64,000 bases of DNA from Desulfobaccales bacterium. GTDB lineage: Bacteria; Desulfobacterota; Desulfobaccia; Desulfobaccales; 0-14-0-80-60-11. The notes beneath the pieces are model-generated. The model searched no databases. It saw only the letters and a program-made list of their open reading frames with translations, and was not told the DNA's origin. A program made the translations under genes and the position numbers. Positions 1 through 34,379 of this stretch are shown here, one piece after another. Position 1 is the stretch's first letter, and each line of letters starts with the position of its first letter. Location of the stretch: assembly GCA_052139855.1 (NCBI GenBank), contig JBKQVS010000045.1:657-64656 (forward strand), in the 5' to 3' direction.

Positions 1-408
1 GCACAAAACCACAAGGAATTCCAGTAATGAGGATAAATGAAGGAATCAAGGGTAATGCATGGGGAATTTTCGAGGGTAACACCTTGCAAGGTTCTCTGAT
101 TCCCTTATGTGAATGCAAGTTTAAACACCAATTTTGAGCGAACCCTTACCTTATCCTTCACACGCTTTTTAGGAACATTTTGAGGCATTTTAAGTGCGAT
201 TTACATTATAAAAAGGGCTTCAAAACTGATACCTCCACCCCTTGCCCAATCCACAAAAATCAACGAAACCCATTCAGAGGAATTTCTTTCCGGTATACCT
301 CTTGGTTATCCTGTTGACATACCCTCCATCTTTGTGACATAAGGGAATCATCTTGCAGTACCCAACCCCTGCCACCAGGGGAATATGATGCTTGATAAAC
401 TTGATGAC
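1..408 (-). mobile_element. Edge of a second low-GC inserted element that continues beyond the window start. It is non-coding and related, in inverted orientation, to 5680-5965.
   Basis: Composition switches at about 400-408, exactly where the YihY-like frame loses family resemblance. Positions 188-215 are the reverse complement of 5811-5838 (27/28 nt). Interrupted similarity flanks this core on both sides, for example TGCATTCACATAAGGGAATCAGAGAACCTTGCA versus TGCATTCATAGCATGGAATGAGAACTTGCA. Confidence 0.5.
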
Positions 409-747
409 CAGGATGCCGATGAGGGTGGCCGCAAGGCCGGTGCCCGGCCGGTAGGCGGCCTCGATCATCGTTCTCACGGCGCCGGCCCCTTGGGCCCCGA
501 TCAAATCCTGGGCCCGCCGCAAGATTTCCACCTGGACGGTGGTCTTGCCAAGGATAACGCCGAAGATGGCGATGACGATGATGAGGAGGGGGGCCATGGA
601 AAAAGTGGTATAGAAGGCCAGGGCGGCGCCCAGGGTTGGGGCATTGTCTCGCCGCCAGGCCCGGTAGGTCTCGGACAACAAGTCCCAGACCGGTCTCAAA
701 GGGGGCCGTCTTTTGCGGGGGGCCGGCGCCGGGGTTTCGTGAGGCAT
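400..747 (-). pseudogene. YihY/BrkB-family membrane protein, 3'-truncated, with only about 115 N-terminal codons left
   Basis: In ORF 274..747 the first ~114 aa (LGAALAFYTTFSMAPLLIIVIAIFGVILG...) look like YihY family N-termini. The rest is encoded by low-GC DNA and lacks the remaining transmembrane segments of a ~290-aa family member. Confidence 0.6.
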
Positions 748-831: not shown

Positions 832-1125
832 TCAATCGCCGATGATTTTCACCAGGACGCGTTTGCGGCGGCCGCCGTCGAACTCGCCGTAAAAAATCTG
901 TTCCCACGGCCCGAAATCGAGCCGGCCGCGGGTAACGGCCACCACCACCTCCCGGCCCATGATTTGCCGCTTCAGATGGGCATCGGCGTTGTCCTCGCCG
1001 ACGTTGTGGCGATACCGGGAGACCGGGGCGTGGGGGGCCAGGCCTTCCAGCCAGACTTCGTAGTCGTGATGCAGCCCGGACTCATCGTCATTGATGAAAA
1101 CGCTGGCGGTGATGTGCATGGCGTT
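832..1125 (-). pseudogene. yjbQ: YjbQ/UPF0047 family protein, C-terminal 95 codons (distal half of a split gene)
   Basis: ORF 832..1119 ([30 protein letters not shown]...) matches the central and C-terminal part of YjbQ-type proteins. The missing N-terminus is found at 7431..7562. Confidence 0.8.
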
Positions 1126-2806
1126 CTTGATTCATATCTTCTTTAACTTTCTCCGGTGCTGCAAGGTTTGGATTTTCTTTTAAAATTGTTGTCCCAATTT
1201 TGCTTAAAATCTCTTTGTCTCCCTCTTTGTCCTCTCTAAAGCGGTCTGAAAAAGTGAATGCATCTCCACTTCTCGCAAGAAGAACTCCTTCTATTGTTCC
1301 TAACTTACCATAAGCGTTAAATTCGTATCGCTTAGGCTTGCCCTTAAGCTCTTGTATGTAAATCCCATATTTTCTTCCCATTTCATCTTTACCACCAAAA
1401 AGCAGATTGACAAGTTTTTTCTTTTCCTCAAAAGGTAATTTTTCAAAAGGGACGCCTGACCCTAAGTAGTTTATTCTCTGTAGAAATTTTACATACATAA
1501 TCCGCTTAATCTCTATATCTGTTTCAGTCGGTAATGTATTCAATCGTAATTGGATTGAATCAATTTCTTCCTTTAACCCCTTGGCATTGTTTTCTAATTC
1601 CTTCCATTTTGGTTTAATTCTTTCAAAGATTTTGTCACAATCATTATCATCTTTACACTTGTCTATCAGCGAAATGAAAGTATTGATTCTTTTCTGCGTA
1701 GCCTTAAGTTCGTCTTGTTTAGATTCCAGCTTTATCCTAAGGTCTTCGGCCACCTTCCCAAGTGGGTTTCCATTAAAAACAGACTCCCTCAAACTATCTT
1801 TGTTGCCAAGCACCAAAAATAATTCATCTAAAACAGCCTTTTCCAGTGCATCTGCATTTATTTGGTATCTACGTTTACGTCCTTGATATGGCTTATAATA
1901 TCTCGTTCCCCTCTGATTCTTTGTTCCCGTTAATGCATAGCCAGTATCTTTATCAAATATCAAACGTGAGAAAAGATATTGATATTTTTGCGTCTTATGG
2001 TCATAGGTTCTTCGAGCTTCACATTTTCTCCTAATTGCGATAATTGTCTCATTAGAAAGAAGGGGAGGAATGTTTAATGTATGTGTTTCATCAAGCTTAA
2101 AGTTTTTATCTTTAAAATGAATAGACCATTTGTCACCGCAACGATAGCACATTGTTTTATGGAGATTAGTACCATTCATTCCAAATCGTTCACCAAGCTG
2201 TTTCCATGAGTAATCTTCTTCAAGGTAGAGTCTGGCAGCTTCATTTATTATGGCTTGCTTCTTTTCGTCAATTTTCCAAGTCAGGGTAACCTTATTCCAA
2301 ATCCGGCCATAGGGCTTCTTTCCACAAGACGGGCGACCATCTTTAGCCCGTTTAATCCTGTTAATGGCCGACTTATATTTTTGCTGTTTTGCAAAGAGTT
2401 CTTGAATTTCAACACCCATACCAAGGATAAAGCAGTGGTCCGGATTATATAAGTTCATCTCCATAGTTCCATTAAAAAACCTTATCTCTAACTTCTGCAA
2501 AGTCTCTATATACTGTTTTGATTTCGAATTATCCCGTGACCATCTTGATAAATCAGCAACCATGATTGCTTCAAAATTCTTTTGTTCAGCGTCCTGCATT
2601 AGCTTGTCTAATATTTTTCGCTCATAGTCTTGTGTGGCATGTTCTTGTCCCTCATACCATTTGTAAATTTTGCCATTAAGACTTTGTATCGCCTGGGAAA
2701 GTTGCTCCTTTTGAGTTCGCAAGCTTTCACCTTGTTTGGCCTGTTGCTCTGTTGATACACGAATTAGGGGGGCAAACACCAAGCCTGTATTATCTTCCTG
2801 TTTCAT
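1088..2806 (-). CDS. Large serine recombinase (integrase)
   Basis: 572-aa ORF with an N-terminal resolvase catalytic motif (LIRVSTEQQ), a recombinase/zinc-ribbon-like region (CYRCGDKW) and a long K/E-rich coiled-coil-like stretch. The last 8 codons and the stop lie in host DNA beyond the junction repeat. Confidence 0.85.
1115..1125. repeat. attL core (TGCATGGCGTT)
   Basis: Identical 11-mer at 7429-7439, located at the host/island composition boundary. Confidence 0.8.
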
Positions 2807-2850
2807 TGAGTTATCCCCTTAAATTGGTCAATTGTTGACATAGCTTAAGG

Positions 2851-3183
2851 TTATTTTGATTCGCCATCTTTCAGAGGAAACCTCTTTGCATTAGTAAGAT
2901 ACTCTTTCAAATCATCTTCATCTACCAAAATCTTTTTACCTAACTTTATGATAGGGAAGGGAACCAGCTTGCGATTTATCCAACTTCTGAAAGTGCCTTG
3001 AGTTATTCTCAAGACTTTAGAGACTTCTTCTACTGTCAAATATCTTTTATTTAGGATGGAATCATCATTCACAGCTTTTGCCAAATCCTTTAGAGGGGTT
3101 TCACGGTCTGATTTTCCAATCTTATCGCCTAACATATCTATAAGCTCGCCATTAGAATGTTTCTTATACTTGTTGGATACCAT
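2851..3183 (-). CDS. Excisionase/MerR-superfamily HTH DNA-binding protein (possible recombination directionality factor)
   Basis: 110-aa ORF. The segment LTVEEVSKVLRITQGTFRSWINRKLVPFPIIKLGKKILV resembles excisionase-family HTH domains. It overlaps 3138..3815 by 46 nt. An alternative ATG at 3135 lies 3 nt after the upstream stop. Confidence 0.6.
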   Translation of the reverse strand: MVSNKYKKHSNGELIDMLGDKIGKSDRETPLKDLAKAVNDDSILNKRYLTVEEVSKVLRITQGTFRSWINRKLVPFPIIKLGKKILVDEDDLKEYLTNAKRFPLKDGESK

Positions 3184-3815
3184 TTGACCAATCCCCGTTT
3201 GGTTTTAACCCCACGACTCTTAAATTCTTCGGCAATGGCTTGAAGCGTATACCCCCTGTCCCTCAATTCCTTGGCTAATCTGATAACCTCTTGTTCTGGC
3301 AAGAAGGGGGTCAATTGGGTACCTTCTACCTTGTAGCCGAACGGAATATGGCCTACGTGTTCACCTTTCTCAATTTTCCTTTGCAAAGCATCACTTGTTC
3401 TCTCTCCTATCATACCCCGTTCCATCTCCGCAATTCCGGCAATGAGGGTGAAGAAGAATTTTCCCAATGGGGATTTGGTATCCAAACGCTCATTGATGCT
3501 ATGGAATCCAATCCCATAATTATCAAGCTCCTTCGTGACCTCTAAGGCGTCTATGGTAGAGCGGAAAGCTCTATCAAGCTTATATACCACCAGGGCTTCT
3601 ATTTCCTTATTCCGAGCCATGTCAAGAATCTTCTTTATCCCTGGCCGATTCAGGTTTTTTGCCGACAAACCTTCATCTGCCACAATCTCTATAAGCACAA
3701 AATCGTTTAGTTCACAGTAAGCTTTAATCTTGGCTCCTTGGTTTTCCAGGCTAACCCCTTCCCTGGCCTGTTCTTCTGTGCTCACCCTAACATACCCCAC
3801 AGCTTTTTTCATCAA
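3138..3815 (-). CDS. Small serine recombinase (resolvase/invertase type)
   Basis: 225-aa ORF with the VGYVRVSTEEQ catalytic-serine motif, a resolvase N-terminal domain pattern and a C-terminal HTH-like tail. Confidence 0.85.
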   Translation of the reverse strand: MMKKAVGYVRVSTEEQAREGVSLENQGAKIKAYCELNDFVLIEIVADEGLSAKNLNRPGIKKILDMARNKEIEALVVYKLDRAFRSTIDALEVTKELDNYGIGFHSINERLDTKSPLGKFFFTLIAGIAEMERGMIGERTSDALQRKIEKGEHVGHIPFGYKVEGTQLTPFLPEQEVIRLAKELRDRGYTLQAIAEEFKSRGVKTKRGLVKWYPTSIRNILMASL

Positions 3816-3853
3816 ATTACTCCTTAGCTTGGTTTACCTATTTATATAGCAGT

Positions 3854-3882
3854 TTGCGTTGCATGTCAAGCTTTTTTATAAT
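3854..3882 (+). promoter_or_regulatory. Sigma70-like promoter candidate (TTGCGT-17 nt-TATAAT)
   Basis: TTGCGT at 3854-3859, a 17-nt spacer and TATAAT at 3877-3882, pointing toward 4029..4563. Confidence 0.3.
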
Positions 3883-4028
3883 TAAGGAACGTTTATTATA
3901 AATGACCTTGTTAATGAGGCGTATGCTGAACTGAAAATGTCAGTTTTAGTATCGGATTTAGTTAACTTTTTATGCTATAAGGGGATTATGCGGCTTCCCT
4001 TGTCAAACTAAACATTTGGCTTAAAAAA

Positions 4029-4256
4029 ATGACAGACCCTTTCAAGCCCTATATCCAATCCCTGCAAGCTGATTTGGCGCGGTGCAACGCCTCAGAGCAT
4101 ACCCACAGGCCCGACCTCAAGATTCTCCTGGAATCCTGGGGGCAACGCCTCTCGGCCACCAATGAACCCCGGCAGGTTACCGATTGTGGTAACCCCGATA
4201 TTTTCTATTGGATGGTTCCATTTTTGACAATGGCAAAGAATTTGGGATTTTCTTGA
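4029..4256 (+). pseudogene. Remnant of the N-terminus of a type IIG/N6-adenine DNA methyltransferase-like gene
   Basis: 75-aa ORF. The stretch CNASEHTHRPDLKILLESWGQRLSATNEPRQVTDCGNPDI resembles, from memory, the conserved N-terminal block (ATEHTYRPAL...NEPKR..CGAPDF) of large methyltransferase/restriction fusions. It is truncated after ~60 aa and locally higher in GC than the rest of the island. Confidence 0.35.
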
Positions 4257-4302
4257 CATTACCCATAGGCTCATGGTGAATTAGGAATGATAAGGAAGAA
4301 TT

Positions 4303-4563
4303 ATGGGGGAGTTACTTGAGTGGTTGTTCAAAGTCGAAAACAAAAAAACTTGCCGTTTCATTGGCGTTATTTTGGTCTTGACGCCACTTTTATTCTTTTT
4401 CGGTGGAGGATTTCAAGGAGCTACTCTTGAAGGACCTATCTTTACTACTGGTGGACTTAGAGCGGTCTTCATTACAATTATGTCGGTTATGTTCATCATG
4501 GGGATTATGCTTATTTTGGTTGGATTTAGTAGACGTGAAAAAAATGGGGCCTTCAAGAAGTAG
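4303..4563 (+). CDS. Small membrane protein, unknown function
   Basis: 86-aa ORF with two clear hydrophobic segments (FIGVILVLTPLLFFFGGG and AVFITIMSVMFIMGIMLILVGF). Confidence 0.5.
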   Translation: MGELLEWLFKVENKKTCRFIGVILVLTPLLFFFGGGFQGATLEGPIFTTGGLRAVFITIMSVMFIMGIMLILVGFSRREKNGAFKK

Positions 4564-4600
4564 CGTGGGTAGATACTAAGTCCCCTTGCTCAGGTTCCTT

Positions 4601-4644
4601 GCCACTTGCTCGATGGGTATGTCTTAGAGCTGCTATTTTATGTC
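4601..4644. repeat. 44-bp imperfect direct repeat, copy A (partner at 5009-5052)
   Basis: 37/44 identical by hand alignment. The minus strand reads a decayed mini-ORF (MKRDIK*). Confidence 0.6.
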
Positions 4645-4720
4645 TCGCTTCATGTTTTTATCATTCTGCTATCCGAGAATGTTATGAGCAACGATTCGCA
4701 GCCTGGTTTTACTTGATATC

Positions 4721-4957
4721 CTAACATCTTATATACAATGATATAACCACTAATAATCCAGTAAGTAGGGCTAATACCCAAGTTGCCATTGCAAGAGTCC
4801 ATGTTTTATTTACAAGTTGTTCAGTATATCTTAATTTTAAGATATCATTAGCCACCATATAACCGATATGGTTCGGTGCTTCCATTCTCAACATAAATTC
4901 CATTATTTCTTGTACTGAACTTGTTAATAACATTTTCCTATCTTCTTCCTTAAACAT
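4721..4957 (-). CDS. Small tail-anchored membrane protein, unknown function
   Basis: 78-aa ORF with a C-terminal hydrophobic helix (WTLAMATWVLALLTGLLVVISLYI). Confidence 0.45.
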   Translation of the reverse strand: MFKEEDRKMLLTSSVQEIMEFMLRMEAPNHIGYMVANDILKLRYTEQLVNKTWTLAMATWVLALLTGLLVVISLYIRC

Positions 4958-5008
4958 TTTTAGCCTCCTAAATCTGGATAAACGGCTCAGCCCAGGCCCA
5001 GCCGCTCG

Positions 5009-5052
5009 GCCACCTGGTCAATGGGTATGTTTTTGAGCTGGTCTTTTATGTC
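5009..5052. repeat. 44-bp imperfect direct repeat, copy B
   Basis: Partner of 4601-4644. It lies within a minus-strand mini-ORF at 4987..5055 (MDIKDQLKNIPIDQVAERLGLG*). Confidence 0.6.
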
Positions 5053-5065
5053 CATATGTCACCAC

Positions 5066-5572
5066 TTATTCCTTTTTCTGTTCTTGTTCTTTCATCATTT
5101 TATGATAGGCAAAAGTGGCTATCATTCCCCTAAAAATTGAAAAATTTATGAATAATGCCACAATCACAACACTTAGATAACCAAAACGGAAACCTTGATA
5201 ATTCTTATTTAATCCTAAAATTATATTGGCAATACCTTCAAAAAAAACATGCACAAACATAATTGTGATACAAGTTCTACTCTTTTTATAAATGCCAAAT
5301 GTCAATAATGATAATATGACTATATCTACTATATCCACTGTACTTGCCATATTACTAACTAACTTGTAATATACTTCACGGCCATTTAGAAACAAAACAA
5401 ATAATGCAACACAAAATGCACCAGTTATAGGGTTGATAGTGATATGATTGGTATCAGTTAAGTGGATTGATTTTTTACAATGAGGACACCAATAACCATG
5501 AACTGTTTTCAATTTGTAACCATCATAATTACCACAGTCTGGACATTTGATATTGTTGTCAGCTTTTTTCAT
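5066..5572 (-). CDS. Zinc-ribbon membrane protein, unknown function
   Basis: 168-aa ORF with N-terminal CPDC...17 aa...CPHC and about four hydrophobic helices. Confidence 0.55.
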   Translation of the reverse strand: MKKADNNIKCPDCGNYDGYKLKTVHGYWCPHCKKSIHLTDTNHITINPITGAFCVALFVLFLNGREVYYKLVSNMASTVDIVDIVILSLLTFGIYKKSRTCITIMFVHVFFEGIANIILGLNKNYQGFRFGYLSVVIVALFINFSIFRGMIATFAYHKMMKEQEQKKE

Positions 5573-5679
5573 TTATACCGCTCTCCTTAAAACTGCATAA
5601 ACCTTTCAGCAGCCGCCGGGAGGTGGTTAAGGTTGCGGGGACAAAAAAACCGAACTGCACCCTCAGGGCATCCCGGCTC

Positions 5680-5965
5680 TTATCATTCAATCAACATAAT
5701 CGCTCCCCTCCTGGTGAGTGGGGCAGCTTTTAGAATAATTCCCTTATGGCATAAAGTGAGATGGTCTGTCAATAAGTTTACAAGAGGCATGGAGGTGAGA
5801 AATCCAGTCGCTTTTTACAATGTAAATCGCACTTAAAACCACTCAGAACGGCTTTTTCGGTTTAGGGAAGGGTAAGGGTAAGGGTAGAGGGAAAACGTTT
5901 AAAATCAGCCCCTCAAACGTGCATTCATAGCATGGAATGAGAACTTGCATTTTAATTGTGAGAAT
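5680..5965 (+). repeat. Non-coding module homologous, in inverted orientation, to 1-408
   Basis: Positions 5811-5838 (CTTTTTACAATGTAAATCGCACTTAAAA) match the reverse complement of 188-215 at 27/28 nt. The flanks match with indels. It contains the GGTAAG tandem tract at 5865-5890. Confidence 0.55.
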
Positions 5966-6157
5966 TCGAAAAAGGCTCATTTGTTTCTATGGGAATTGTG
6001 ACAATTGGATAGAGTTAAATGCTTAACTTATTTGAATCATTGGGGTATTCCCCCCCCCTATGGCAGAACGATGGCAAGATATAAATTGCCATTAAATTAT
6101 GACAATTGTTTATAGCATGGCGCACAGTCTAAAGCTGTAATGCCAATTGTGACAATA
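5954..6157. promoter_or_regulatory. Four copies of a 13-bp near-palindrome AATTGTGACAATT (iteron or operator candidates)
   Basis: Copies at 5954-5966 (AATTGTGAGAATT), 5994-6006 (AATTGTGACAATT), 6095-6107 (AATTATGACAATT) and 6145-6157 (AATTGTGACAATA), with start-to-start spacings of 40, 101 and 50 bp. Confidence 0.5.
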
Positions 6158-6242
6158 AAAATCATTTCAGTTAGCTACAACTAATTGAAATAACCCCTTT
6201 TTATGGGGAGGGGAGGCGTTCAACCACATTATCAACTTGTAA

Positions 6243-7241
6243 TCACAATGAATCAGGCATGATATATTCTTTACCAGTGGTAGGAATAAACGATGTCTTT
6301 GATAGCTTATGCATAAATGCATTTGTAAGTAGTTCATGTTCGACAATAAATCGCCCATAATTAGGCACTCCCCTATCTTTGTCTTTTAGTGATTCAATCT
6401 GCTTGATAAATTCGGATTCATATTCTCTATGAGTAATACCCCTAACCCACTGGTGAATAGTTTGTTTGATTATATTTCCATACCCTGGCCTCCTCTGGTT
6501 AACACGTTTAATTTCCTGTTTGTTCTTTCTTACAATGTAGTTTGTCAGCATGTTTGAATCAATATAGGCAAATATGAAGAATTGCTTTAAATTCAGTGCA
6601 TCTATATTACTTAAAGGCAGTGACAAACCTAACCGTTTGATTACCCTACGGCTTAGCACAAGCTCCATTCTGACAAACTCAGGATTATCTTCTGGTTTAA
6701 GATAAGTTCTTGTTCCTTTAGTAGCTGTTCTTATATCAGTTGTATAAAATGTATCTTCAATGTTGAATGACTTTTGTTTCTGGTATCTGAGGTACAATTT
6801 GTTGTCAAGAAATTCCTGAAAGTCTTCAAGATTTTCTGTGTAAAAATCAAAGGTAAGCTCTACTTGACTTAATTTGTGAAAGATGGAAAACTTGCTGAAA
6901 TAGCTATGGAATAAGTGTAATATCTCTTTGCTTGGGTCATGAATCTCTATTCTTGTTGTTGGTATCAACTCACCTTTAAATCTCATGTCATAGAACAGTT
7001 GAATGCTAATATCATTGTCACAATACGTCTTAGTGCGATTAAATTTACCTTTTGACAGAGGATTCTTTTTTGTCCGTTTAAACCCATTGGCACTTAATAG
7101 GTCACAAATTGGGTTTAGAAACCTAAGGTGAATATATGAAAGGGAAAGCCAATCAATACTTGCCCTAAGGGTAAAATCAGGAATGTAAGAATCGTCTGCA
7201 TTATTATAGGAGGTAAGTGGACTAAAGACTTCAAGGGTCAT
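6243..7241 (-). CDS. Putative Rep_trans/MOB_T-like replication initiator or relaxase
   Basis: 332-aa ORF. The motif pattern SIDWLSLSY ... VELTFDFY ... RTYLKPEDNPEFVRMELVLSRR resembles the blocks of rolling-circle Rep_trans proteins (iDwL, RiDlaiD, iY.K....R.El). This is recognised by eye only. Confidence 0.35.
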   Translation of the reverse strand: MTLEVFSPLTSYNNADDSYIPDFTLRASIDWLSLSYIHLRFLNPICDLLSANGFKRTKKNPLSKGKFNRTKTYCDNDISIQLFYDMRFKGELIPTTRIEIHDPSKEILHLFHSYFSKFSIFHKLSQVELTFDFYTENLEDFQEFLDNKLYLRYQKQKSFNIEDTFYTTDIRTATKGTRTYLKPEDNPEFVRMELVLSRRVIKRLGLSLPLSNIDALNLKQFFIFAYIDSNMLTNYIVRKNKQEIKRVNQRRPGYGNIIKQTIHQWVRGITHREYESEFIKQIESLKDKDRGVPNYGRFIVEHELLTNAFMHKLSKTSFIPTTGKEYIMPDSL

Positions 7242-7428
7242 AAGGTCTTAAATCTCCTTCAAATTTTAGATTGAATGAATGTTAACGGAAAAAGGCCAAA
7301 GTGTACATAATTTTTCTGGATAGGGAATGGGTGCAAGGATTATCTTTGCTCTATCTGCCAAAAGGCTGTCTTGCGTATACTTCCCCGTTCAGAATAAAGG
7401 GGATTGGTTTTGAAGGTGTAAGAATATT

Positions 7429-7439
7429 TGCATGGCGTT
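7429..7439. repeat. attR core (TGCATGGCGTT)
   Basis: Identical to 1115-1125. Confidence 0.8.
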
Positions 7440-7562
7440 GACCAGGACCAGGCCTTCGGTGACGCCGCTATCGGCGAGGCATTGCTCCACCTGGGGGGTG
7501 ATATTGATGAAGGCCCGGCGGCCGGGGACTTGAAACCAGAGTTCCTGGCGAAAGCTTTTCAT
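7429..7562 (-). pseudogene. yjbQ: YjbQ/UPF0047 family protein, N-terminal 44 codons (proximal half of the split gene)
   Basis: Minus-strand ATG at 7562. The translation [44 protein letters not shown] ends at the ATG inside the junction repeat and then runs into island DNA. Confidence 0.8.
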
Positions 7563-8720: not shown

Positions 8721-10469
8721 TTAGTCTTTGGGCGGTTCCTCCGAATCCTTGAGGTCCAGGGCGCCGGATTTTTTGAGGGCGGCGAGGCCGCCCTGGAGGT
8801 TGACGGCGTTACAGAGGCCGGCGGTTTCGAGTTGGCGCAGGGCCTCGTAGGAGCGGACGCCGGAGTTGCAGACCACCAGAAGGCGCTTATCCGGGGGGAT
8901 TTCATTGAGGCGGTGGTTCAGGGTCTCCTGGGGGATATTGAGCCAGCGCGGCCCAAAGAGGTCGACGTAGGGGGCGGCGTTGGCCGCGCCCCGGACGTCC
9001 AGGCAGATGGCGTCGCCGGCCTTATCGGTCAAGAAGCACTGTTCGAAGTCGGCGACCTCGATGGTGCGGTTGTAGCCGTCCAGGATGTTTTCCAGGGTGT
9101 TGGCCACGGCGTTGACGATATCGAGGGCGGCGGCAAAGGGCGGGGCGTAGGCCACTTCCAGGTTGGACAGGTCTTGTAAGCTGGCCTTGAAGGGGAGCAG
9201 GGCGGCGATGCTGTTGATGCGGCCCACCAGGGCGTCGCCGTTGTGGCTGAGGCCCTGGGCCCCGAGAAGGCGCCGGGTGGCTTTATCCGCCACCAGGTGG
9301 AGATACATGAGGTCCTGGGTGGGGTAGAAGTGGGCCCGGTCGGCCTGGATCACCAGGGCGCCGGCGGCATCAAAGCCGGCGGCCGCGGCCTGGGCCAGGC
9401 TTAAGCCGGCGCCGGCGATGGCCAGGTCAAAGGTCTTCAGGGTGAAGGAGCCGACGATGCCGTTGAAGGTGGCGGCGCCTCCGGCCAGGTTGGTGCCGAT
9501 GACCCGGCCCTGGCGGTTGGCCAAGGAGCCGGAGGGAAAATAAACGGGTTGGCCGGTGATGAGGTGCAGGTTGTCGATGCAGTCGCCACCGGCGTAAATG
9601 CGGGGGTCGGAGGTCTGGAAGCGCGGGTTGACCGTGATGCCGCCGGTGGGAGAGACCAGCAGGCCGGCCTGGCGGGCCAACTCAGTATTGGGGACGGCGC
9701 CCACCGCGGTAATGACCAGGTCGGCGGGTAAGATTTCTTGTCCGGTGACTACTTCCAGGGCATGATCGTCTCCGGCGTGAGGCCGGATTTCCCGGACGGT
9801 TGCCGACAGGTGGAGGGTGACGCCCTGGTCCCGGAGATGTTTGGCGACCATGCGGGCCAGACCGAGCTCCAGGACGCCGGGAAGGACCTGGGGGGTGACT
9901 TCCACTAAGGCGGTCTCCAGGCCCCAGAGGTCGCTGACGGCCTCGGCCATTTCGACGCCGATGGCGCCGGCGCCGATGATGACGACGCGGCCCACCTCAC
10001 CTTTGGCGATGGCTTCCCGGACGGCCATGGCGGCGGGGAGATTCGAGACGTTCAGGACGCCGGGGAGGCCGGCCCCGGGGACGGGCAGGGGGCGGGGACG
10101 GCTGCCGGTGGCCAGGACCAGGTGGTCATAAGGGAGATTTTCCTCCCGGCCGGTGACCAGATCAAGGACCCGCACCTGTTGGTGGGGGCGATCAATGGCC
10201 AGGGCCCGGGTGCGGATTTTGACCCGGACGTCCTTGGCGTTTTCAAAAAATTCGGGAGTGCGGAGCATGTGGAAGCTGGTGCTCATCAACTCCTTGATAT
10301 CGCTGAGATCGCCGGAGATATAGTAGGGGATGCCGCAGCCGCCGTAGGAGATGTATTCGCCCTGATCCACCATGGTGACCTCAAAGTCGGGGCGGAGACG
10401 TTTGAGGCGGCAGGCCACCTTGGGACCCAGGGCTACGGCCCCGATGATGATGACGCGTTTCGGTTTCAT
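8721..10469 (-). CDS. FAD-dependent pyridine nucleotide-disulfide oxidoreductase (CoA-disulfide reductase/NADH oxidase-like) fused to a C-terminal rhodanese domain
   Basis: 582 aa with GxGxxG at the N-terminus (IIIGAVALG), a redox Cys context (YGGCGIPYY), a second dinucleotide fold (VVIIGAGAIGVE) and a rhodanese active-site loop (VVCNSGVRS). Confidence 0.8.
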   Translation of the reverse strand: MKPKRVIIIGAVALGPKVACRLKRLRPDFEVTMVDQGEYISYGGCGIPYYISGDLSDIKELMSTSFHMLRTPEFFENAKDVRVKIRTRALAIDRPHQQVRVLDLVTGREENLPYDHLVLATGSRPRPLPVPGAGLPGVLNVSNLPAAMAVREAIAKGEVGRVVIIGAGAIGVEMAEAVSDLWGLETALVEVTPQVLPGVLELGLARMVAKHLRDQGVTLHLSATVREIRPHAGDDHALEVVTGQEILPADLVITAVGAVPNTELARQAGLLVSPTGGITVNPRFQTSDPRIYAGGDCIDNLHLITGQPVYFPSGSLANRQGRVIGTNLAGGAATFNGIVGSFTLKTFDLAIAGAGLSLAQAAAAGFDAAGALVIQADRAHFYPTQDLMYLHLVADKATRRLLGAQGLSHNGDALVGRINSIAALLPFKASLQDLSNLEVAYAPPFAAALDIVNAVANTLENILDGYNRTIEVADFEQCFLTDKAGDAICLDVRGAANAAPYVDLFGPRWLNIPQETLNHRLNEIPPDKRLLVVCNSGVRSYEALRQLETAGLCNAVNLQGGLAALKKSGALDLKDSEEPPKD

Positions 10470-10538
10470 GCGTTTCCTCTGGAGAGCTGAGTTTGGGGCG
10501 TAAGTGGGGCGCAGGGCGCACCCGAGAAAATATTGTCA

Positions 10539-10570
10539 CGCCAAGGCGCAAAGGCGCCAAGGTGCAAAGA
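10539..10570. repeat. Tandem octamers (CGCCAAGG CGCAAAGG CGCCAAGG TGCAAAGA)
   Basis: Four consecutive 8-mers read directly, in the spacer between the CDF gene stop and the oxidoreductase start. Confidence 0.7.
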
Positions 10571-10584
10571 AGTCATAAATCAGA

Positions 10585-11610: not shown

Positions 11611-11803
11611 GGATTGGCAATAGACCTGATTTTATAAGTCCGACTATTTCATGAATATACTTTTCCTTCATGGCAATCAAGGCCAATATGCTTATTCTCC
11701 GAGGAAAAGAATGGGTATGTTGACTCTCGGCCATCTGGTGGATAAAGTTAAATATATTGCCTGGATGATAAATTGATCGGATCAATGCGACGGGGTGGGG
11801 CTG

Positions 11804-11998
11804 ATGAAAATATCGATAGAGTTGTCCCAGGAGCAGGCCAGAATTTTTCAAAGCACGGCGGAACGGCTGGGTTTAAACCCTGAAGAATTGGCCCGGGCTG
11901 GCCTGGCGGATATGTTGGGAGTCCTGCAGGATGATTTCCAGAAAGCCGCAACCTATGTCCTGAATAAAAACCAGGAACTCTATCGGCGGCTTAGTTGA
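11804..11998 (+). CDS. Putative antitoxin of the Doc toxin
   Basis: 64 aa from the ATG at 11804 (the track ORF starts at GTG 11795). Its stop overlaps the start of the Fic/Doc gene. Confidence 0.55.
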   Translation: MKISIELSQEQARIFQSTAERLGLNPEELARAGLADMLGVLQDDFQKAATYVLNKNQELYRRLS

Positions 11999-12387
11999 TG
12001 CGATACTTGACCCTTGGAGAGGTCATAGAGTTGCACCGCCGAATTATCCAGCAGACGGGCGGTGCATCCGGAGTGCGCAACCTTGCCGCGTTGGAGTCGG
12101 CCGTGGCGCAGCCTCGCATGACCTTTGAGGGACAAGACCTTTATCCGACTATCGAGGATAAAGCCGCGGCGCTGGCATTCTTTATTGTCCAGAACCATCC
12201 GTATCTAGATGGAAACAAGCGTTGCGGTCATGCCGCGATGGAAACTTTTTTGGTGCTGAATGGCAAGGAAATAGATGCCCTGGTGGACGAAGTCGAGGAG
12301 ATTATTCTGGAAATAGCCTCGGGAAAATTCTCTCTGAAGAATTTTGGAAACTGGTTAGCAGGACATGTCCGCAGTTTAATATCTTGA
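11998..12387 (+). CDS. doc: Fic/Doc family toxin (death-on-curing)
   Basis: Contains the Fic motif HPYLDGNKRCG. About 129 aa, typical of Doc toxins, with an ATGA-type overlap with the upstream small ORF. Confidence 0.85.
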   Translation: MRYLTLGEVIELHRRIIQQTGGASGVRNLAALESAVAQPRMTFEGQDLYPTIEDKAAALAFFIVQNHPYLDGNKRCGHAAMETFLVLNGKEIDALVDEVEEIILEIASGKFSLKNFGNWLAGHVRSLIS

Positions 12388-12426
12388 GGCTGGCAGAATG
12401 TTACGGTGACGCCTCAAGGTAAGCAG

Positions 12427-12750
12427 CTATTTGTGGAAATGGATGAAGATATTCTCCCGTTCAAAGGTTCCCTTCAAGAAGATTTCCTGGTGGTCCTGGG
12501 AAGAGAAGGTCTGCAGGTCGAAGTCCTCGTCAGGAAACCAATCCGTCTGAAAGACTAAACCGGAATCGTCTTGCCGGATGGTGACGTGGCCTTCATCGGC
12601 GACCTCAAGGGGCCAGGCGAGATAGAGGCTGAAGCTCAAGGAGGTGGGGGTGCGGCTGATACTGGCCTTCTTGGCCTCCCAGATTTCATACTTGGGGTCG
12701 CCGAACCCGGAGAGCCAATAGAGGGTGATGTAGTTGAGGCCGTCAAACAT
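12427..12750 (-). CDS. Hypothetical protein
   Basis: 107-aa ORF 34 nt downstream of sdhB on the same strand. No motif recognised, and GC is lower than in its neighbours. Confidence 0.35.
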   Translation of the reverse strand: MFDGLNYITLYWLSGFGDPKYEIWEAKKASISRTPTSLSFSLYLAWPLEVADEGHVTIRQDDSGLVFQTDWFPDEDFDLQTFSSQDHQEIFLKGTFERENIFIHFHK

Positions 12751-31990: not shown

Positions 31991-33187
31991 ATGCCTGAAT
32001 ATCTCGACAGCACCTACGATGTGGCGGCCAACACCCACACTGCCAAGGAACAGTCCTTTGCCGTAGTGGAGGTTGGGGACGCCAAACAGCCGGAGGTGTT
32101 CCACCCGCAAGTCAAGATTATGCGCTGGGATAATGAGTGCAATTTCTCGGCCCGGTTGGTGCATAAGGAAGCCAGCCCTAAAGTCGCGCTGGTGGCTGAC
32201 AAAATTCAATGGGTAGGTGATGCAGTTGAGGCTCACTTCTACGAGATCGGAGAGGGGAAGGAAGGCGGCGGTTATGAATTTGAAATTATCCTGAAGAAGG
32301 CACCCAAGAGCAACGTCATCAGCATGACCCTCCAGACAAAGGGCCTGGACTTTTTTTACCAGCCCGAATTGACCCAGGAGGAGATTGACCATGGGGAAAT
32401 TCGGCCCGACAAGGTAATTGGTTCCTACGCCGTCTATCACCAGACGATGGCTGGCGATCATACCGGGCTGGGCGGCAAGAACTATCTTGCGGGTAAGGCG
32501 TTTCACATCTTCCGCCCCAGGATTGAGGATGCTGAGGGGAATTGGGTTTGGGGCGATCTTAATATTGATGATAAGCAGGGGTTGCTCACCGTCACTATTC
32601 CCCAGGACTTTCTAGATAAAGCCGTCTATCCGGTGCGTCACGCAGCGGGATTGGAGTTTGGGTATCATGTGGTGGGAGGCTCTCAAAATAGCACTGGAAA
32701 TCAGACTTGTTTATTCAAAGCAACGGCAGGTGGTTCAGCACCAGGAACCCCGGCTTCATCGGGGATTATAACCAAACTCACCTTATACTGTAAAATATCC
32801 CAAAACAATCCTGTTTTTAATCCAGGTGTTTATAATAATTCAAGTGATCTTCCGTCAACAAAGGTTGCGGGAATAGACTCTGGTGGCAGTCAAATTCCAG
32901 TTAATTACGCATGGCTGGATTCCCCCATATCGGCAACAATAATAGCTGGAACCCAATACTGGTTGGGGTTTTCAAATCATACTGGCAATCTTTATTATAC
33001 TTTCGATACTATTACCAATATACAACAATATGCGAATGGACTTGCCGCTTGGCCCGATACTTGGACTGGAAACGCCTGGAATAATCTCGCAAGCCTCTAT
33101 GCCACCTATACAGAATCAGGCGGAAGCGCCGCCAAGGTTCCTTTTTGGCTGTTTAATCAAGCTGCATTAGGACAAGGAGTAGCATGA
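31991..33187 (+). CDS. Phage structural protein with a compositionally foreign C-terminal domain
   Basis: 398-aa ORF. The 3' third (about 32690-33120) drops to 19/60 and 24/60 GC in hand-counted lines. Confidence 0.5.
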   Translation: MPEYLDSTYDVAANTHTAKEQSFAVVEVGDAKQPEVFHPQVKIMRWDNECNFSARLVHKEASPKVALVADKIQWVGDAVEAHFYEIGEGKEGGGYEFEIILKKAPKSNVISMTLQTKGLDFFYQPELTQEEIDHGEIRPDKVIGSYAVYHQTMAGDHTGLGGKNYLAGKAFHIFRPRIEDAEGNWVWGDLNIDDKQGLLTVTIPQDFLDKAVYPVRHAAGLEFGYHVVGGSQNSTGNQTCLFKATAGGSAPGTPASSGIITKLTLYCKISQNNPVFNPGVYNNSSDLPSTKVAGIDSGGSQIPVNYAWLDSPISATIIAGTQYWLGFSNHTGNLYYTFDTITNIQQYANGLAAWPDTWTGNAWNNLASLYATYTESGGSAAKVPFWLFNQAALGQGVA

Positions 33188-33188
33188 C

Positions 33189-34379
33189 ATGGCTTTGAAA
33201 GGCGTGGCGATCACGATTCAATATACCGCCTGGGATACTTCGGCCAATGCCCCCAAGACCGGTGATGCGGCTAACCATACCCTCAAGGTAATCAAGGACG
33301 GGACTGCGGCTACCCCCACCAATAGTCCGTCGGAAGTGGACGCGACGAATTGCCCCGGGGTTTACAAACTGGCTTTGACGGGGGCGGAAATGGGGTACAA
33401 CACTGTTTCTGTGGCTGGTAAAAGTTCAACTGCCAGCGTCGCTATCATCCCAATCCACATCACCACGGAAGGGGGCAACCTGGATGCGGCGGTGAGCAGC
33501 CGGGCCCCGGAATCCGGCGGCAATGTTGCCGCGGTCAAAGCCAAGACAGATAACTTACCGGCCTCGCCAGCGGCCGTGGGTTCGGCCATGACTCTCACCA
33601 GCGCCTATGATGCAGCCAAAACCGCCGCGCCGGAATCCGGGGGCAACGTGGCGGCGATCAAGGCCAAGACGGACAACTTGCCATCCGACCCGGCCAGCAA
33701 TACCCAGGTCAATACGCGGTTGGCCACCTCAGGCTATACGGCTCCCGACAACACCGACATTGTGGCCATCAAGGCTAGGACCGATAACCTCCCCGCTTCT
33801 CCGGCGGCTACCGGGGATATACCTGCTGCCGCCACCATTGCCGCGGCAGTTTGGGGCAACGCCAGCCGGACCTTGACTTCCTTCGGCAGCCTCGTAGCCG
33901 ACATCTGGGCTTATGCCACCAGAACGCTTTCTTCTTTCGGGGCCCTGGCAGCCGATGTTTGGAGCGTGGGTACCCGGTCTCTCACCGACAAGACCGGATT
34001 CACGATCTCGGGGACAAAGCAGACCCTGGATGCCTTACAAGATCTCTCCCAGGCCGGGGCCCAGGCAGGGGCGACCGCGGCTCTCAATGCCTATGATCCG
34101 CCCACCAAAGCCGAAATGGACGCGGCCCTGGCCGCCCTGCACGACATCAGCGTGGGAGAACTGTTGGCCGGGGATCTGTCGGACAGCCTGAGTTTTCCGG
34201 CCAACTCCCTGGCGGACCGGCTCCGCAAGCTCTTCTGGATCCTCTGCAACCGCATGGCCATCGTGGATGCGACCGGGGCTTTCACGGCATACAAGGGCGA
34301 CGGGGCGACTCCCGGGGCCACCGGGACCATCACGGATAACGGCACGAACACGGTAAGGAGTGCACCGACATGGCCATAA
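33189..34379 (+). CDS. Fibre-like structural protein with internal repeats
   Basis: 396 aa with three copies of ESGGNVAA[VI]KA[KR]TDNLP[AS].PA and three copies of W....R[ST]L[TS]. Confidence 0.5.
   Translation: MALKGVAITIQYTAWDTSANAPKTGDAANHTLKVIKDGTAATPTNSPSEVDATNCPGVYKLALTGAEMGYNTVSVAGKSSTASVAIIPIHITTEGGNLDAAVSSRAPESGGNVAAVKAKTDNLPASPAAVGSAMTLTSAYDAAKTAAPESGGNVAAIKAKTDNLPSDPASNTQVNTRLATSGYTAPDNTDIVAIKARTDNLPASPAATGDIPAAATIAAAVWGNASRTLTSFGSLVADIWAYATRTLSSFGALAADVWSVGTRSLTDKTGFTISGTKQTLDALQDLSQAGAQAGATAALNAYDPPTKAEMDAALAALHDISVGELLAGDLSDSLSFPANSLADRLRKLFWILCNRMAIVDATGAFTAYKGDGATPGATGTITDNGTNTVRSAPTWP

Follow-up and report, generated by a model that had tools for sequence, protein, structure and literature searches.

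An integrative element in the yjbQ gene

The stretch of DNA analysed here, which we call the window, is 64,000 nucleotides of contig JBKQVS010000045.1 (positions 657 to 64,656) in the assembly GCA_052139855.1 of a Desulfobaccales bacterium, and near its left end the gene yjbQ is cut in two by an AT-rich element that has a serine recombinase gene at one edge. The 11-bp sequence TGCATGGCGTT is present in exactly two copies in the window, at 1115-1125 and 7429-7439, where 0.03 copies are expected by chance, and two or more copies were seen in 0 of 100 shuffles. The 6,303 bp between the repeats have a GC content of 37.9%, against 61.5% for the remaining window. An earlier note, made from the letters alone, had drawn attention to this locus. 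Its coordinates for the repeat were exact and there is no third copy in the window; the segment of low GC is also real, but the contrast is less steep than the roughly 35% and 70% that had been counted by hand.

The gene yjbQ lies on the minus strand. Its 5' part (7438-7562) consists of codons 1-41 and the first two bases of the Asn42 codon, and its 3' part (832-1125) of codons 42-138 and the stop codon. The list of open reading frames (ORFs) contains both minus-strand pieces that had been described before, one from 7562 to 7389 that starts MKSF...LVLVNAM, and one from 1119 to 832 that reads MHITASVF...IIGD and is 95 amino acids (aa) long from Met44. A tblastn search with the joined YjbQ places residues 1-46 at 7562-7425. 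When 1126-7439 is deleted, that is one copy of the repeat and all that lies between, a single 138-codon ORF is formed, just as the earlier note had predicted for a precise excision, and its product covers the whole of the Pfam profile PF01894/UPF0047 (positions 1-117 of 117, E=1.6e-35). We regard 1126-7439 (minus strand; 6,314 bp with one repeat copy) as the integrated element. No second copy of yjbQ was found within the window.

The integration itself can be read from the comparison of strains, since the yjbQ site is occupied in some of them and empty in near-identical ones. The joined 138-aa YjbQ is found residue for residue in public data, on contig_82837 of ERZ25039519 (L008), which has an uninterrupted yjbQ, no insertion, and the gene order of the window (ferredoxin-type protein, cation efflux, pyridine-nucleotide disulfide oxidoreductase, YHS, yjbQ, brkB, peptidyl-prolyl isomerase, deaminase, PEP-utilising enzyme). 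Identity to the window is 98.2% and 98.7% in the flanks, and the two flanks of the window abut on this contig with an overlap of 14 bp. The search for a relative with an uninterrupted yjbQ and the predicted junction had been set beforehand as a test that could refute the idea, and the product of the gene in L008 is the predicted joined protein. A more distant syntenic contig (L007, 86-95% identical) also has yjbQ uninterrupted, and the bacterial attachment site (attB) that had been predicted, GGTGATGTGCATGGCGTTGACCAGGACC, is present in both. More than 100 intact YjbQ homologues of 138-139 aa were found at 84-96% identity, and Asn42, Ala43 and Met44 are invariant in ten aligned YjbQ sequences.

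The occupied allele recurs in independent assemblies. The element is found at 100% identity in one contig (L001), and five Logan contigs are 99.9-100% identical over longer stretches that include it. Contigs from six sequencing runs have the two occupied junctions in identical form, and the recombinase is present in two NCBI protein records of Desulfobaccales metagenome-assembled genomes and is carried by one 218-kb NCBI contig. In an independent ENA assembly (L035) the site is also occupied, by an element that is 95.1% identical, with a right flank of 93.7% and a left flank of 99.9% identity. It is highly probable that we are dealing with a small, 6.3-kb, AT-rich and non-phage integrative element, which was inserted by its own large serine recombinase at the Asn42 codon of yjbQ in Desulfobaccales.

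The integrase and its crossover site

The recombinase gene (1088-2806, minus strand) sits directly on the attachment site, beside the left repeat, and codes for 572 aa. That a serine recombinase element splits yjbQ had been proposed in the earlier note, and the protein is a genuine large serine recombinase. It matches Pfam PF00239 (Resolvase) at residues 15-156 (E=1.8e-14) and the PHROG integrase (E=1.3e-34), and R16, V17 and S18, in the region of the catalytic domain that holds the nucleophilic serine, are invariant in an alignment of 50 sequences. The sequence profiles detect only the catalytic domain, but the AlphaFold model (pLDDT 80) continues with a helix at 122-155, an α/β domain at 168-269, a β-hairpin region at 283-305 and long helices at 349-423, in which the long αE helix, DNA-binding domains 1 and 2 and an embedded coiled coil can be recognised. 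Foldseek aligns the model with full-length serine integrases over 553-563 columns (9dxd_A, E=5e-17), with further matches to Bxb1, PhiC31 and the LI integrase(-DNA complex). Judging from this predicted fold, the protein is a divergent but complete large serine recombinase.

Three close relatives of the element, with integrases that are 70-75% identical, have the same backbone of a 332-aa protein, a small recombinase, an HTH_17 protein and the integrase, but differ in their cargo. Their GC content is 35-39%, in hosts of about 60%. One of them (L019, about 9 kb) lies in yjbQ next to brkB and carries CsrA, HxsD and two radical-SAM genes, another (L010) lies in yjbQ of a genome labelled Acidobacteriota, and the third, a peat-soil type of 8.7 kb (L011-L018), is found at the 3' end of amtB, upstream of glnK. 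The last one has an integrase of 75% identity and is a clean natural case of integrase retargeting. The junctions of L019 (GGTC AA GCTAATG... and CAGG AA CGCCATGCA...) have only the dinucleotide AA in common, which fixes the crossover there. An integrase of 75% identity was also found under the label 'Nitrososphaeria archaeon' (L036, JBEKIG010000029.1, and protein P0140). The same element is seen in eight metagenome contigs, between glnK-type and amtB genes and beside multihaem cytochrome genes, and the archaeal label is probably a binning error.

A scan based on the integrase alignment, with one genome per species, gave 49 loci. A fragment of yjbQ abuts the 3' end of the integrase gene in 26 of them, 13 times the 3' part of yjbQ on the same strand and 13 times the 5' part on the opposite strand, and the junction falls at the AA of the Asn42 codon in 26/26 (one sampled junction each). 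The AA is shared by both junctions in the window, in L019 and in seven complete elements, which have both ends in the locus and are 7-11 kb long. In some relatives the arms of the element's own attachment site (attP) are strongly palindromic and centred on the AA, for instance AACTAGATTTACTTAGGG AA GGCTTAGTAAATTTAGTT in L059, and by hand count the arms match at 14/16 positions in L059 and at 17/20 in L061. Short attachment sites with an imperfect dyad symmetry around an identical 2-bp crossover, as is typical of serine integrases, are thus what is found at these loci.

By homology we place the crossover in the window at the TT (AA in the yjbQ sense) of 1124-1125 and 7438-7439, at the edge of the 11-bp repeat and not in its centre. 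The other nine shared bases would then be an incidental identity of attP and attB. The arms in the window, GAAGATATGAATCAAG and GAATATTTGCATGGCG, are symmetric about the TT with 10/16 positions matching (hand count). Inverted arms around the repeat had been proposed before, and both are present as quoted, but the relatives move the centre of symmetry to the TT at the repeat edge.

Going by the titles of their records, the carriers belong to Desulfobacterota ('Deltaproteobacteria'), Acidobacteriota, Planctomycetota, Spirochaetota, Bacteroidota, Lentisphaerae and Bacillota, that is seven phylum-level labels, and two of them are cultured, Desulfosarcina widdelii PP31 (with a complete genome) and Desulfopila aestuarii DSM 18488. 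At eight loci, and on one IMG/VR contig, a full-length yjbQ lies inside the element directly upstream of the integrase gene. The host gene, as rebuilt from its halves, has 92% identity to this copy in L049 and 96% in L050, and the elements with a yjbQ of their own compensate for the gene that they break. The element in the window, unlike these eight relatives, is without a replacement yjbQ. Within the same group, some elements deal with the cost of disrupting the target by a replacement copy, and the window element does not.

Two distant integrase relatives (L048 and L075) abut a divergent yjbQ-like gene (36-40% identity) and have TA and TT in place of AA as the dinucleotide at their junctions; they may have been retargeted to a paralogue of yjbQ. 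A 232-aa YjbQ homologue on a 991-bp NCBI contig (P0001) has residues ~42-133 tandemly duplicated, with the duplication joint, ...KRVLV|NAMHITAS..., exactly at the codon that the integrase targets. It could have arisen by recombination of attB with a like site close to the 3' end of yjbQ, or be an artefact of assembly.

Gene content, excision and alternative explanations

All core genes of the element are on the minus strand. Next to the integrase gene lies a gene (2851-3183) for a 110-aa DNA-binding protein of the HTH_17 or 'excisionase family' type (Pfam PF12728, E=1.4e-11; TIGR01764, E=7.9e-10), 78-83% identical in the three related elements, which is a candidate regulator or directionality factor. 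It is followed by a second, small serine recombinase (3138-3815; 224 aa from the ATG at 3812; Pfam Resolvase, E=1.8e-40) with a full resolvase domain and only the start of the Recombinase domain (positions 3-49 of 102). This protein matches the catalytic domain of the TP901-1 integrase (E=2e-22), and with 79-84% identity in the related elements it is better conserved than the large recombinase. The two genes overlap by 46 nt (3138-3183) in different frames, and the overlap is also called in L012 and L019.

Next comes a plus-strand ORF of 75 aa (4029-4256) that resembles the N-terminus of a type IIG restriction-modification enzyme (PADLOC REase_MTase_IIG, profile 3-57 of 1096, E=1.4e-6) and is probably the remnant of a gene. 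The cargo, three small ORFs, follows within 4303-5572, of 86 aa (plus strand), 78 aa (minus) and 168 aa (minus), the translations of which show hydrophobic and, by eye, membrane-like stretches. The 168-aa ORF has a zinc-ribbon-like CxxC pair at its N-terminus, and none of the three has a family match above the curated thresholds in the Pfam, PHROG, NCBIfam and PADLOC scans. A direct repeat of 44 nt (84% identical, 4601-4644 and 5009-5052) brackets the 78-aa ORF. The PADLOC search for defence cargo gave only an HTH match and the fragment of the type IIG enzyme. Searches of all eight ORFs against PHROGs and Pfam gave no phage structural genes, and the matches are of integrase, invertase, excisionase-type or HTH kind only; capsid, terminase, tail gene, morphogenesis ATPase and coat protein families were all looked for and not detected.

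To the right of the cargo is a conserved non-coding region (5735-5929), which the element has in common with the peat-soil type (L011, 5675-5890) and with the end of a second element in the window (~140-360, opposite strand), and between this region and the last gene there are four or five iteron-like copies of a AATTGTGACAATT-like motif (5954-6156). The non-coding region was considered as an RNA and rejected, with no Rfam match and a folding no better than that of shuffles on either strand (z = 0.2 and 1.2), and a scan of metagenomes with its most conserved 18-mer returned only copies of one relative that was already known, together with chance matches. A structured RNA or tRNA as the target was likewise rejected, with no Rfam match at the gathering score or at E<=1, and no tRNA or tmRNA.

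The last gene of the backbone (6243-7241, minus strand) encodes an orphan protein of 332 aa, with only 12 homologues among 5.8 billion proteins and no sequence match in Pfam, NCBIfam, PHROG or PDB. Its AlphaFold model (pLDDT 70) gives weak Foldseek matches to a staphylococcal rolling-circle initiator (4cwe_A, probability 0.91, E=3.8e-3, TM 0.27-0.32) and to an Inoviridae 'REP' (E=2.2e-4), and R178, Y180, R191 and E193 are conserved. With low confidence, we suggest it as a candidate initiator of rolling-circle replication.

Taking the chemistry and the directionality from what is established for the enzyme family (PMC12286644), the life of the element could be imagined as follows. The integrase would bind attP on the circular element over about 50 bp and attB in yjbQ (...GGTCCTGGTC AA CGCCATGCACATCACC...) over about 40 bp, cut both sites at the AA with 2-nt overhangs, rotate the halves and religate them, and this attP x attB reaction would be unidirectional. 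As long as the element is integrated, yjbQ is inactivated because there is no replacement copy on the element. The reverse reaction, with the help of a directionality factor, would release a circle with the predicted attP junction ...GAATCAAGAACGCCATGCAAATATTCTTACACC... and restore the 138-codon yjbQ without a scar. The adjacent HTH_17 protein, or another protein of the element, could be this factor; directionality factors have neither a conserved sequence nor a conserved gene position (PMC12286644). It is more speculative that the circle may replicate as a plasmid, with the Rep-like 332-aa protein and the iteron-like and conserved non-coding DNA near it, and that the small serine recombinase may resolve multimers. 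The weak similarity to Rep proteins, the four conserved residues and the adjacent repeats are consistent with such a plasmid-like life after excision, which we infer less firmly than the integration.

Several observations weigh against this picture. The 589-aa form of the integrase that is expected from the excised element is absent from a collection of 15 billion proteins, a 24-mer of attP is absent from IMG/VR, and no excised circle or attP junction was found in any assembly searched; nine of nine contigs with the gene for the 332-aa protein are integrated forms. The structural matches behind the Rep assignment are all weak (TM-scores 0.27-0.37), and the directionality factor is so far a matter of candidates. 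In the integrase neither PF13408 (Zn_ribbon_recom) nor PF07508 gives a match; PF13408 is seen only in relatives of at most 41% identity, and the recombinase and zinc domains are visible only in the predicted fold and in distant relatives. The cysteine pairs that are usual in the zinc domain are, by eye, replaced, and the enzyme may for this reason be a zinc-less variant. The gap of 23 points in GC to the host is also unusually large for an element that has been resident for long.

The position of the attachment site, inside the 3' end of the integrase gene, leads to another idea. The integrase ORF ends in host DNA, 34-36 nt past the crossover, and its last 11 codons are encoded by the host, while the form predicted for the excised element is 589 aa long with a different end of 25 residues. 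The ORF overruns the crossover by 2-86 nt in 24/24 of the yjbQ-targeting loci examined, and by 21-42 nt in 13/13 of the relatives that, as in the window, read into the 3' part of yjbQ. Two isoforms could in this way report the state of the element, one of 572 aa with an 11-residue host tail when it is integrated and one of 589 aa with the element's own tail when it is circular. We offer this as a doubtful speculation. If the tail affects the stability of the enzyme or the balance of integration and excision, there would be a built-in device for directionality or copy control on the serine integrase itself, and this would be analogous to integration-dependent immunity, in a new place. In the mycobacteriophages with such immunity it is the gene of the repressor that contains attP, so that integration gives the repressor a different C-terminus, and they have a tyrosine-type integrase; in the present case the tail exchanged would be that of the serine integrase itself.

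It could be argued that the element is instead domesticated and regulated in the sense of skin, SPβ or gin, mainly inherited vertically, and that an excision timed by the host switches yjbQ on. The architecture is the same, with a coding gene split by an element that has its own serine recombinase, a scarless restoration predicted, and an intact allele present in L008. The integration state of the window element also determines the function of yjbQ, since it has no replacement copy, the element can evidently persist, as the more divergent strain L035 is occupied too, and the closest precedent, gin, is likewise non-phage with several recombinase genes (PMC5595907). However, one clade of integrases uses this codon in carriers with seven phylum-level labels, and with varied cargo, which is a signature of horizontal mobility, and a strain with flanks of 98.2-98.7% identity is empty. 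The full-length yjbQ beside the integrase in eight relatives suggests that these elements avoid the loss of the gene rather than exploit it. No terminally differentiated type of cell, in which an irreversible excision would be harmless, is known from Desulfobaccales. The horizontal spread, the variation between close strains and the eight replacement copies point to an ordinary mobile element rather than a domesticated developmental switch, and a regulated switch of the skin/SPβ type is unlikely, with only a slim chance of being the right explanation.

An integrated satellite or a defective filamentous-phage-like element, which needs a helper for its packaging and is not a plasmid-like replicon, would agree with the size of 6-10 kb, with the several small ORFs with hydrophobic, membrane-like stretches and with the few distant integrase relatives on contigs that IMG/VR classes as viral. 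The best named viral structural match of the 332-aa protein is moreover the 'REP' of Inoviridae, alongside the rolling-circle initiator in PDB. These structural matches are weak, though, the cargo is entirely different between the relatives, and the lack of any morphogenesis, coat, capsid or terminase family in the PHROGs and Pfam searches speaks against a satellite, to which we give a small chance. That an AT-rich foreign contig has been misjoined into a genome of high GC, or wrongly binned with it, might be suspected from the 23-point difference in GC, from the fact that all these data are metagenome assemblies and from the close relative in a bin with an archaeal label, apparently through an error of binning. 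Such an artefact would hardly place the two junctions within one codon so that an exact gene of 138 codons remains, and the cultured Desulfosarcina widdelii PP31, in its complete genome, and Desulfopila aestuarii DSM 18488 show the same arrangement. As the occupied site, with identical junctions, recurs in the six sequencing runs, the 218-kb NCBI contig and the independent ENA assembly, an artefact is negligible and for practical purposes excluded. An ordinary site-specific integrative element, genuine and with a target that is newly recognised, is the best-supported explanation.

Known systems and other insertions in the window

Gene-splitting elements with a serine integrase are well known (PMC4191935, PMC5499854, PMC5595907). 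In Bacillus subtilis, SPβ with SprA in spsM and skin with SpoIVCA in sigK (PMC4191935, PMC5499854) also have the gene of a large serine recombinase beside the attachment site. In both a coding gene is interrupted, a short repeat is present at the two junctions and a precise excision rebuilds the frame, so the likeness to skin and SPβ that the earlier note had seen is justified for the architecture but goes no further. SPβ and skin are prophages or remnants of prophages in spore formers, 48-134 kb in size, with an excision that is programmed in the mother cell, whereas the yjbQ element has 6.3 kb, no phage genes and a Desulfobaccales host, and belongs to a family that has spread horizontally. 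The gin element in gerE of Bacillus cereus ATCC 10987 (PMC5595907) is more similar in that it is non-phage, has several genes for site-specific recombinases, and recombines within a short (9-bp) shared sequence in the small gene that it splits. Its excision is specific for sporulation and needs GirC and GirX (PMC5595907). The yjbQ element, in contrast, has a non-sporulating host, and its target and backbone genes are different.

The Listeria prophages of the A118/φ10403S type in comK ('active lysogeny') are another case where a serine integrase targets a conserved coding sequence and a reversible excision can restore the function. They are full-size, tailed phages, and their regulated excision has been shown experimentally, while excision of the yjbQ element is a prediction. 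The SCCmec elements with CcrA, CcrB or CcrC are also non-phage and use large serine recombinases and a conserved housekeeping gene, and both recombinases of the yjbQ element have a partial, sub-threshold similarity to NCBIfam CcrB (51 and 128 bits, with the cut-off at 900). As these scores are far below the equivalog cut-off, the element is not a member of the SCC family; SCC also inserts at the 3' end of rlmH without inactivating the gene. In Vibrio cholerae, yjbQ has been listed as a hotspot for the insertion of mobile elements (defence islands; bioRxiv 10.1101/2024.07.25.605194), and the point in common with the present element is the gene.

No paper that links yjbQ with serine recombinases was found in the literature searched, and there the conservation of the crossover across phyla, the replacement copies and the attP embedded in the ORF of the integrase appear to be undescribed. 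The gene yjbQ hereby joins the conserved genes that serve as landing sites for serine integrases, and one clade has kept the same 2-bp crossover across the seven labels. Since the target motif VNAMHITAS is nearly invariant, the pairs of integrase and attP are candidates for integration tools of broad host range in anaerobes that resist genetic engineering, and the integration into yjbQ could be tested in two cultured carriers, Desulfosarcina widdelii PP31 and Desulfopila aestuarii DSM 18488.

The window starts inside the end of a second AT-rich insertion (1-402), which lies outside the yjbQ element but is related to it, and which cuts brkB/yihY after ...GGCATCCTGGTCATC. The junction is at 402/403, with the 5' part of brkB at 403-747 on the minus strand. 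The contigs L001, L002 and L004 have an intact brkB of 299 aa and, starting at position 403, share 99.9% identity with the window; the second insertion therefore varies between strains. The chimeric BrkB fragment was not in the gene-position index that was searched for the rest of the second element. The end of the insertion (140-400, minus strand) is about 70-87% homologous to non-coding DNA of the yjbQ element (5660-5990, plus strand) and to 5675-5890 of L011, and the shared region includes a near-invariant TGTAAATCGCACTTAAAA and GGGTAA repeats; it is a candidate for an origin of replication or a second attachment site.

Just left of this conserved region, at 5657-5685, the yjbQ element has CACCCTCAGGGCATCCCGGCTCTTA, the best match of which in the whole of brkB is the insertion site of the second element (CACTCTCATCGGCATCCTGGTCATCTTA, L001 12379-12407). 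As a mimic of the brkB site this internal sequence remains a hypothesis, as its alignment score is not above that of shuffles (110/500 reach it). It could be that the family has a second attachment site beside the conserved region, which the small recombinase uses to enter brkB, or the match could be due to chance. The host sequence at the brkB junction, ATCCTGGTCATC (403-414, minus strand), and the left half-site of the attB GTCCTGGTCAAC in yjbQ have TCCTGGTCA in common, in the same register, and a third copy, GTCCTGGTGAA, is found at codons 131-134 of yjbQ (window ~847-857).

The window varies at other places too. A low-GC segment of 0.77 kb (11668-12433) encodes a Fic-domain protein with a partner of 64 aa, which together resemble a toxin-antitoxin pair. 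The window, L001 and L035 have this segment, and L008, which is otherwise 98% identical, lacks it. A pyridine-nucleotide disulfide oxidoreductase of 582 aa with a rhodanese domain (8976-10582) is missing from the syntenic L007. At 31991-34379 there are two ORFs of about 400 aa, repetitive, rich in Ala, Thr and Gly and tail-fibre-like, with a dip in GC to 49.7% at 32-33 kb, and these are possibly part of a prophage.

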